Source of the DNA: Escherichia coli
GTDB taxonomy: Bacteria; Pseudomonadota; Gammaproteobacteria; Enterobacterales; Enterobacteriaceae
NCBI RefSeq assembly: GCF_003334815.1
Contig: NZ_QOWO01000066.1
Length of the DNA: 8,045 bases
Direction: 5' to 3' (one strand)
Below, piece by piece: positions 5,164-5,630 of the stretch; position 1 is the stretch's first letter, and every line of letters begins with the position of its first letter. The notes below the pieces were generated by a model that saw nothing but the letters and a program-made list of their open reading frames with translations, made no database searches and was not told the origin of the DNA. A program made the position numbers and the translations under genes.

Positions 5164-5208
5164 ATGACAACATTTATTCAGCTTCATTTGTTAAGGGGCG
5201 GCTTATGA
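5164..5208 (+). pseudogene. cas7: cas7 (casC/cse4) remnant: 14-codon stub MTTFIQLHLLRGGL*
   Basis: ATG at 5164 preceded by AAAGGA at the expected spacing. The first residues (MTTFIQLHLL) resemble the E. coli CasC N-terminus (MSNFINIHVL, as I recall it). The ORF ends after 14 codons at a TGA that overlaps the cas5 ATG. A native cas7 is about 360 codons. Confidence 0.5.
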
Positions 5209-5630
5209 GCCAATATCTGATTTTTCAGCTTCATGGGCCGATGGCGTCCTGGGGTGTCGATGCTCCAGGTGAAGTTCGTCATACCCATGAACTTCCTTCG
5301 CGCTCAGCATTGCTGGGGCTACTGGCTGCCGGGGTAGGGATTCGGCGTGATGATACCGAACGCTTAAACGCGTTTAATCGCCACTATTCACTGGTGGTTT
5401 GCGCCAGCCGTAACCCGCGCTGGGCACGGGATTATCACACGGTCCAGATGCCAAAAGAGGTGCGTAAAGCACGTTATTTCAGCCGTCGCGAAGAGTTGAG
5501 CGACCCTGATCCGCACGCACATTCCGGTGGGATCGGTCGCCTGCATTATGCTCGAACCGGGAACGAGAGTTTCCCACGCGGCGGTGCATCTGGCCGCCAC
5601 GGTGGGGACGCTACTGGTCTGGGTCGGTGA
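5205..5630 (+). pseudogene. cas5: cas5e (casD) N-terminal fragment, reading out of frame into cas1 sequence
   Basis: ATG at 5205 with AAGGGG upstream. Residues MSQYLIFQLHGPMASWG...SALLGLLAAGVGIRRDDT...DYHTV align with the E. coli CasD N-terminus (MRSYLILRLAGPMQAWG...SGLLGLLGACLGIQRDDT...DYHTV, as I recall it). Homology is lost near nt 5495-5505, after which the frame overlaps cas1 until a stop at 5630. A native Cas5e is about 220-250 aa. Confidence 0.8.

Follow-up and report, generated by a model that had tools for sequence, protein, structure and literature searches.

Two scar-less deletions in a probably naturally decaying type I-E CRISPR-Cas locus of Escherichia coli

The DNA analyzed here, an 8,045-nt stretch of Escherichia coli (hereafter the window), is very probably a naturally decaying type I-E CRISPR-Cas locus of the I-E1 variant, which lies between two inverted copies of IS421 and carries two independent scar-less deletions. 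Its sequence is that of positions 33-8077 in the 8,118-bp draft contig CBDBYT010000080.1 (GCA_965212685.1), with a one-base difference at position 84.

The I-E operon of E. coli CP53 (NZ_CP033096.1; coordinates given below as L001) served as the intact reference. By BLAST, the window was collinear with this operon at 99.9-100% nucleotide identity across all the bases that it keeps, except for two clean deletions, and both loci have the same gene order and an identical 29-nt repeat (GTGTTCCCCGCGCCAGCGGGGATAAACCG). The coding sequence of CP53 that is missing from the window comprises cas7e codons 11-351, cas5e codons 102-248, cas6e in full and cas1e codons 1-39; the window also differs in being flanked by IS421 copies. 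The pairwise alignment to an intact E. coli I-E operon that a first-pass annotation of the sequence had proposed in this way defined the breakpoints of two deletions. When window 4400-6700 was compared with 5,426 complete E. coli genomes by megablast, it matched many intact operons at 100% identity in three pieces, which cover 4,514 bp in those operons vs 2,301 bp in the window. A base-by-base comparison of window 5508-6701, leader included, found zero mismatches to the intact reference. The CP53 cas3 itself carries a nonsense mutation at the position equivalent to window 2429 (R724, CGA to TGA), and the gene bears a pseudogene annotation; this is a further, independent inactivation of the I-E system.

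Several parts of the locus are still whole (Table 1). Profile search revealed the helicase-nuclease Cas3, with cas3_core and cas3_HD scores above the cut-offs, together with the signature I-E subunits Cse1/CasA and Cse2/CasB, which gave full-length matches to TIGR02547 and TIGR02548. Downstream of the deletions, the full-length match of Cas2e to TIGR01873 agrees with the earlier reading of cas2 as intact, and the leader-bearing array consists of 21 repeats of the I-E consensus. Within the array, the terminal base of repeat 2 is C, not G, and spacer 19 has a length of 31 nt.

Table 1. Features of the window and their coordinates (window positions; L001 is the CP53 reference locus)
Feature	Position	Strand	Description	Basis
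IS421 (IS4-family) end	1..78	.	perfect inverted copy of 7968-8045	reverse complement of last 78 nt
cas3	260..2959	+	intact, 899 aa	no internal stop in ORF; NCBIfam cas3_core, cas3_HD and PRK09694 matches
cse1/casA	3057..4619	+	intact, 520 aa	TIGR02547 profile positions 1-504 of 504, E = 2.6e-183
cse2/casB	4616..5152	+	intact, 178 aa	TIGR02548 full-length match; protein 100% identical to CP53 CasB
cas7e remnant	5164..5208	+	codons 1-10, then 4 out-of-frame codons and a TGA overlapping the cas5e ATG	translation (MTTFIQLHLLRGGL, then stop)
Junction 1	5192..5194	+	TAA microhomology; 1,025-bp deletion of cas7e codons 11-351	junction alignment
cas5e 5' fragment	5205..5509	+	codons 1-101 plus 2 nt	100% identical to L001 6831-7135; TIGR01868 profile positions 1-95 of 230
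Chimeric ORF	5205..5630	+	141 aa; Cas5e residues 1-101, then 40 junk residues	
TGA in cas1e frame	5497..5499	+	in cas5e-derived DNA, three codons before junction 2; closes the cas1 frame upstream	frame translation
Junction 2	5508..5509	+	GA microhomology; 1,188-bp deletion of cas5e codons 102-248, all of cas6e and cas1e codons 1-39	junction alignment
cas1e 3' fragment	5509..6315	+	codons 40-307 plus stop; no native start	TIGR03638 profile positions 36-268 of 269
cas2e	6312..6605	+	intact, 97 aa; ATG overlaps the cas1e stop	TIGR01873 full-length; 100% identical to CP53 Cas2e
CRISPR leader	6606..6701	+	function inferred from position	
Type I-E CRISPR array	6702..7949	+	21 repeats and 20 spacers	repeat/spacer table; tandem repeats finder
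IS421 end	7968..8045	.	inverted copy of 1-78; insertion directly follows the final array repeat	
Collinear piece 1	65-5194		equals L001 666-5795	BLAST vs CP53
Collinear piece 2	5192-5509		equals L001 6818-7135; 100% identical	BLAST vs CP53
Collinear piece 3	5508 onward		equals L001 8322 onward; 100% identical as far as the array	BLAST vs CP53

At junction 2, the parental sequences are ...GACCCT[GA]GCTTTT in cas5e and ...AACCGG[GA]TCCGCA in cas1e, with the shared dinucleotide in brackets. On either side of the junction the sequence matches a real gene at 100% identity, so that the junction is not a chance resemblance. The deletion took 147 of the 248 cas5e codons (59%), all 216 codons of cas6e and 39 codons of cas1e. 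The first-pass annotation had described a deletion junction between the 5' part of cas5e and an N-truncated cas1, with about 60% of cas5 and the first ~38 codons of cas1 missing and a loss of roughly 1.1 kb. Alignment to CP53 maps this junction to the base and sets the loss at exactly 1,188 bp, and the limits of homology, which had been placed at about 5495 for cas5e and 5500 for cas1, both fall on 5509, so that the estimates were right within a few bases.

Because the join is out of frame and the cas5e frame stops at TGA 5628-5630, where the chimeric ORF ends, no Cas5-Cas1 fusion protein is encoded; the fusion that had been reported exists at the DNA level, but not at the protein level. The 40 junk codons of the chimeric ORF comprise an altered junction codon (Asp102) and 39 out-of-frame codons across cas1e DNA. 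The cas1 homology had also been said to begin directly after an in-frame TGA; such a codon does lie in the cas1 frame (Table 1), but belongs itself to the cas5e-derived DNA. No full-length Cas5e is encoded, since TIGR01868 is matched at positions 1-95 of 230 only and codons 102-248 are deleted. As the first-pass annotation had claimed, the pre-crRNA endoribonuclease Cas6e is absent from the window: tblastn in every frame returned nothing beyond noise for Cas6e (best E = 0.06), and the collinear alignment assigned all window bases to other genes, the array or the IS ends, leaving none for cas6e. The profile search that had been suggested gave a partial Cas5e and an N-truncated Cas1e, and together with tblastn found neither a full-length Cas5e nor a Cas6e-like ORF in the window.

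The first cas1e codon kept is Ile40 (5509-5511), in the +1 frame relative to cas5e. The fragment could be aligned without gaps to residues 38-304 of E. coli Cas1 (3NKD), and the catalytic residues E141, H208 and D221 are all kept, in line with the earlier description of a Cas1 that has no native start and retains its catalytic region. With codons 1-39 deleted, neither the native start nor the full length of the Cas1e integrase is encoded. Candidate internal starts in the fragment are GTG 5527, ATG 5548 and GTG 5584. GTG 5527, at which Shine-Dalgarno pairing was absent (duplex dG +0.6 kcal/mol), is for this reason a poor candidate start. ATG 5548 (M53) has a weak Shine-Dalgarno-like pairing (-5.5 kcal/mol), and a Cas1 fragment starting at M53 may be produced. 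Presumably, the first strands of the N-terminal domain are lost and about half of this domain is retained, as judged from the 3NKD and 4P6I structures. For annotation, the 243-aa 'Cas1e' call is to be treated as a pseudogene fragment.

Junction 1 is placed 314 bp upstream of junction 2. The cas7e remnant is a 14-codon ORF (MTTFIQLHLLRGGL), and the tblastn match to Cas7e in the window was limited to residues 1-10; of the Cas7e backbone subunit, codons 1-10 alone survived the 1,025-bp deletion. This deletion had been missed when it was claimed that pre-crRNA cannot be processed in cis without Cas6e. The absence of cas6e stands, but the functional claim was too narrow: since cas7e codons 11-351 are deleted, assembly of Cascade would be impossible whether Cas6e is present or not.

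To survey how the two junctions are distributed, the 5,426 complete E. coli genomes were searched with 141-nt probes, each with a junction at its centre. Junction 1 was found in one of these genomes, that of strain 52F4 (NZ_CM147848.1; a calf isolate from Switzerland), and junction 2 in none (0/5,426). In 52F4, junction 1 and the IS421 flanks are identical to those of the window and cas2e is likewise intact, whereas cas5e, cas6e and cas1e are complete, unlike in the window. Across ~6.8 kb of shared non-array DNA, the two loci differ by 2 SNPs. Since 52F4 has junction 1 alone and junction 2 occurs in none of the 5,426 genomes, cas7e was lost first, and the cas5e-cas6e-cas1e segment later, in a strain closely akin to 52F4. 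The intact appearance of cas3, cse1, cse2, cas2e and the array would be explained by the deletions being very recent.

The arrays of the window (6702-7949) and of 52F4 (positions 8766-9525 of that locus, L002) were also compared. The 52F4 array shares spacers 1-2 and 13-20 of the window, spacer 18 with one SNP, and has 2 internal spacers where the window array has 10. As the two leader-proximal spacers are identical, it appears that no spacer has been acquired since the window and 52F4 split, and as the differences are internal only, the arrays seem to have diverged by internal loss or recombination and not by acquisition at the leader end.

The 52F4 positions equivalent to the window's terminal inverted sequences coincide with the termini of the annotated IS421 copies on either side of the locus (L002 1-897 and 9601-10713). 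The draft contig thus stops at the locus edges because IS421 copies lie there. The right-hand IS421 stands directly after repeat 21, the array being truncated by the insertion. The 52F4 locus has the opposite orientation to that usual in the cysH-hok...iap context, with hok and cysH after the array and not before cas3, which suggests an IS421-mediated inversion of the CRISPR-Cas segment in this strain.

The exact chimeric protein is on record as an E. coli 'hypothetical protein' (CAM9424706.1), and the ORF for it is present on 2-3 public draft contigs, which represent two or more samples. A wider occurrence of the 243-aa Cas1 fragment was considered and rejected, as the extra metagenome contigs have either a frameshifted cas1e or cas1e joined to foreign DNA at window ~5552, and their junctions are other ones. 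Two contigs from human gut metagenomes (L007 1-60 and L009 1-60) represent a different 5' truncation, in which cas1e is joined at ~5552 to a sequence unrelated to it (AATAAGAATTTCCGTCAATTTTTCTC...), which probably represents a mobile-element end.

We hypothesize that both deletions are products of illegitimate joining at microhomologies, by replication slippage or end joining, at a time when selection no longer acted on the genes. In the first step, a 1,025-bp deletion between two TAA triplets took out cas7e almost completely, which would have put an end to Cascade. In the second, later step, a 1,188-bp deletion between two GA dinucleotides took the 3' 59% of cas5e, all of cas6e and the first 39 cas1e codons. 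The junctions have the character of microhomology-mediated deletions: TAA (3 bp) and GA (2 bp) are common to both sides, and filler DNA and IS sequences are absent from either junction. Microhomology of 2-3 bp is close to the expectation for random joining, which counts against taking it as proof of the joining pathway. The E. coli I-E operon is normally silenced by H-NS. Because of this silencing, and because Cascade would have been dead after the loss of cas7e, selection on the cas genes was presumably relaxed before the second deletion. A scan for promoters and terminators showed that none was newly created at the junction. Hairpin-driven breakpoints were rejected, as DNA folding in 61-nt windows demonstrated no hairpin excess at any of the four breakpoints (z -1.2 to +0.8).

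It is conceivable, if unlikely, that a site-specific break or pause makes the cas1e position between Gly39 and Ile40 a hotspot for deletions, one that would have been hit independently in at least two unrelated allele backgrounds and joined to different cas5e positions. The idea draws on 2018-05-2CC, an unrelated strain with an O157:H7-type allele (~94% identical to the window), in which cas5e codon ~29 is joined to the exact same cas1e nucleotide (...GA joined to TCCGCACG; L004, NZ_AP027877.1, 5990-6010, compared with window 5508-5510). That junction is unique to the 2018-05-2CC genome and is unlikely to be a nested deletion of the window's junction, the allele being O157:H7-type on both sides. 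The cas1e breakpoint moreover overlaps a GATC, and the right-hand kept sequence begins at GATC in junction 2 and in the 2018-05-2CC and VTB96935v junctions alike. However, GATC (Dam) sites are locally dense, with a cluster of 7 in 160 bp at the cas6e/cas1e boundary (L001 8185-8345) vs 20 in the 3,365-bp cas7e-cas1e stretch, so that an overlap is expected by chance, and a GATC/MutH-type break was rejected on these counts. Two of the clustered sites are kept in window 5508-5535. Against a hotspot it also counts that the breakpoint has no unusual hairpin (z = +0.37), that other cas1e truncations break at other positions, and that, among the matches listed, the site is common to two alleles only, in a search that was built to find look-alike junctions. 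Were the hotspot real, a site-specific break or replication-pause mechanism would drive the loss of Cascade and adaptation genes, and the decay would not be purely random.

Positive selection is an unlikely explanation as well. Here, the deletions would have provided an escape from CRISPR autoimmunity caused by a self-targeting spacer, e.g. one against a resident prophage. Deletion of cas operons is known to be selected by self-targeting (PMC3630108), prophages are the preferred matches of E. coli spacers (PMC10910852), and the first deletion took exactly the gene for the Cascade backbone. However, when the array spacers were searched against phage and plasmid collections (megablast, 28-nt word), they matched only other, mislabelled CRISPR arrays, and these hits were rejected as protospacers. 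The normal silencing of the operon by H-NS speaks against autoimmunity as well, and the second deletion came after the death of Cascade and so was not itself an escape event. An escape could accordingly apply to the first (cas7e) deletion, not to the second.

It is highly improbable that the remnant has been kept for a non-immune role, played either by truncated Cas1 with Cas2 or by Cas3 with Cse1 and Cse2. Freedom from internal stops in cas3, cse1, cse2 and cas2e would fit such a role, as would the retained catalytic residues of Cas1 and the fact that the C-terminal domain of Cas1 has been crystallised alone (3NKE, residues ~92-291). Yet, with only 2 SNPs relative to 52F4, the ORFs are still intact because the events are recent and not because selection has preserved them. 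The extreme rarity of the allele is a further objection, and the Cas1 fragment probably has no usable start or Shine-Dalgarno site and, from what we take to be its structure (3NKD, 4P6I), would keep only half of the N-terminal domain. Equally improbable is that the junction is a product of faulty assembly or of laboratory construction. The sequence does come from a short draft contig with IS copies at its ends, but the identical chimeric ORF recurs on 2-3 contigs from two or more samples, junction 1 is also present in the independent complete genome of 52F4, the junctions have no repeat >3 bp able to collapse an assembly, and neither has an FRT/lox scar, a restriction-site scar or a cassette remnant.

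Natural decay by two successive deletions is therefore the reading that we adopt, and its functional consequences can be predicted from the gene content. As the Cas7 backbone and Cas6e are absent and Cas5e is incomplete, crRNA would be neither matured nor loaded, and interference would fail. Cas1, deprived of its start, of translational coupling to cas6e and of part of the N-terminal domain, would not support spacer acquisition, and the translational coupling of cas2e is probably lost too. Interference, crRNA processing and adaptation would thus all be lost, and the CRISPR1 array of the isolate would be a fossil beside an operon that supports none of them. Cas proteins supplied in trans from elsewhere in the genome may weaken this loss-of-function reading, the data consisting of the 8-kb contig alone. 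The locus offers a two-step, dated example of the erosion of a silenced E. coli I-E system, in which cas7e went first and cas5e-cas6e-cas1e followed. Its practical value lies in annotation and CRISPR-based typing, with little beyond annotation: the 141-aa 'hypothetical protein' CAM9424706.1 is a pseudogene fragment, and CRISPR typing or 'cas-positive' scoring by cas1, cas2 or cas3 would wrongly call the system of this strain complete.

An engineered I-E system that, like the window, has no cas6e was functional when unit-length crRNA was supplied by transcription termination (Semenova et al. 2015, PMC4499155). In that system, Cas7, Cas5, Cse1 and Cse2 are all present, whereas the window is without Cas7 and most of Cas5e, and for this reason the Cas6e-independent bypass would be inapplicable here.

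The intact cas7e-cas1e stretch was used as query in a survey of lesions, with a lesion defined as <80% covered in one piece. At least 80% was covered in one piece in 2,638 of the 2,699 genomes that carry the stretch, while about 61 (2.3%) were without at least 20% of it in one piece, i.e. ~2% of I-E1 carriers have some large lesion. The same genes are hit by different, independent lesions in further E. coli genomes. Naturally occurring I-E loci of this species, including those of ETEC strains, have been described with truncated cas3 and cse1 and with IS involvement (PMC6301781), and stepwise pseudogenisation of CRISPR-Cas operons is already known in E. coli and Shigella. In VTB96935v and OZ547226, an 899-bp deletion with CCGAT microhomology spans cas5e-cas6e, and the heavily eroded operon of 2018-05-2CC combines cas3-to-cas7e and cas5e-to-cas1e deletions with an IS1. 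These three have other left breakpoints and allele backgrounds than the window and have lost other sets of genes, and none of them has junction 2; their deletions are nevertheless internal and scar-less, with 2-5 bp of microhomology, and of the same kind as those in the window.
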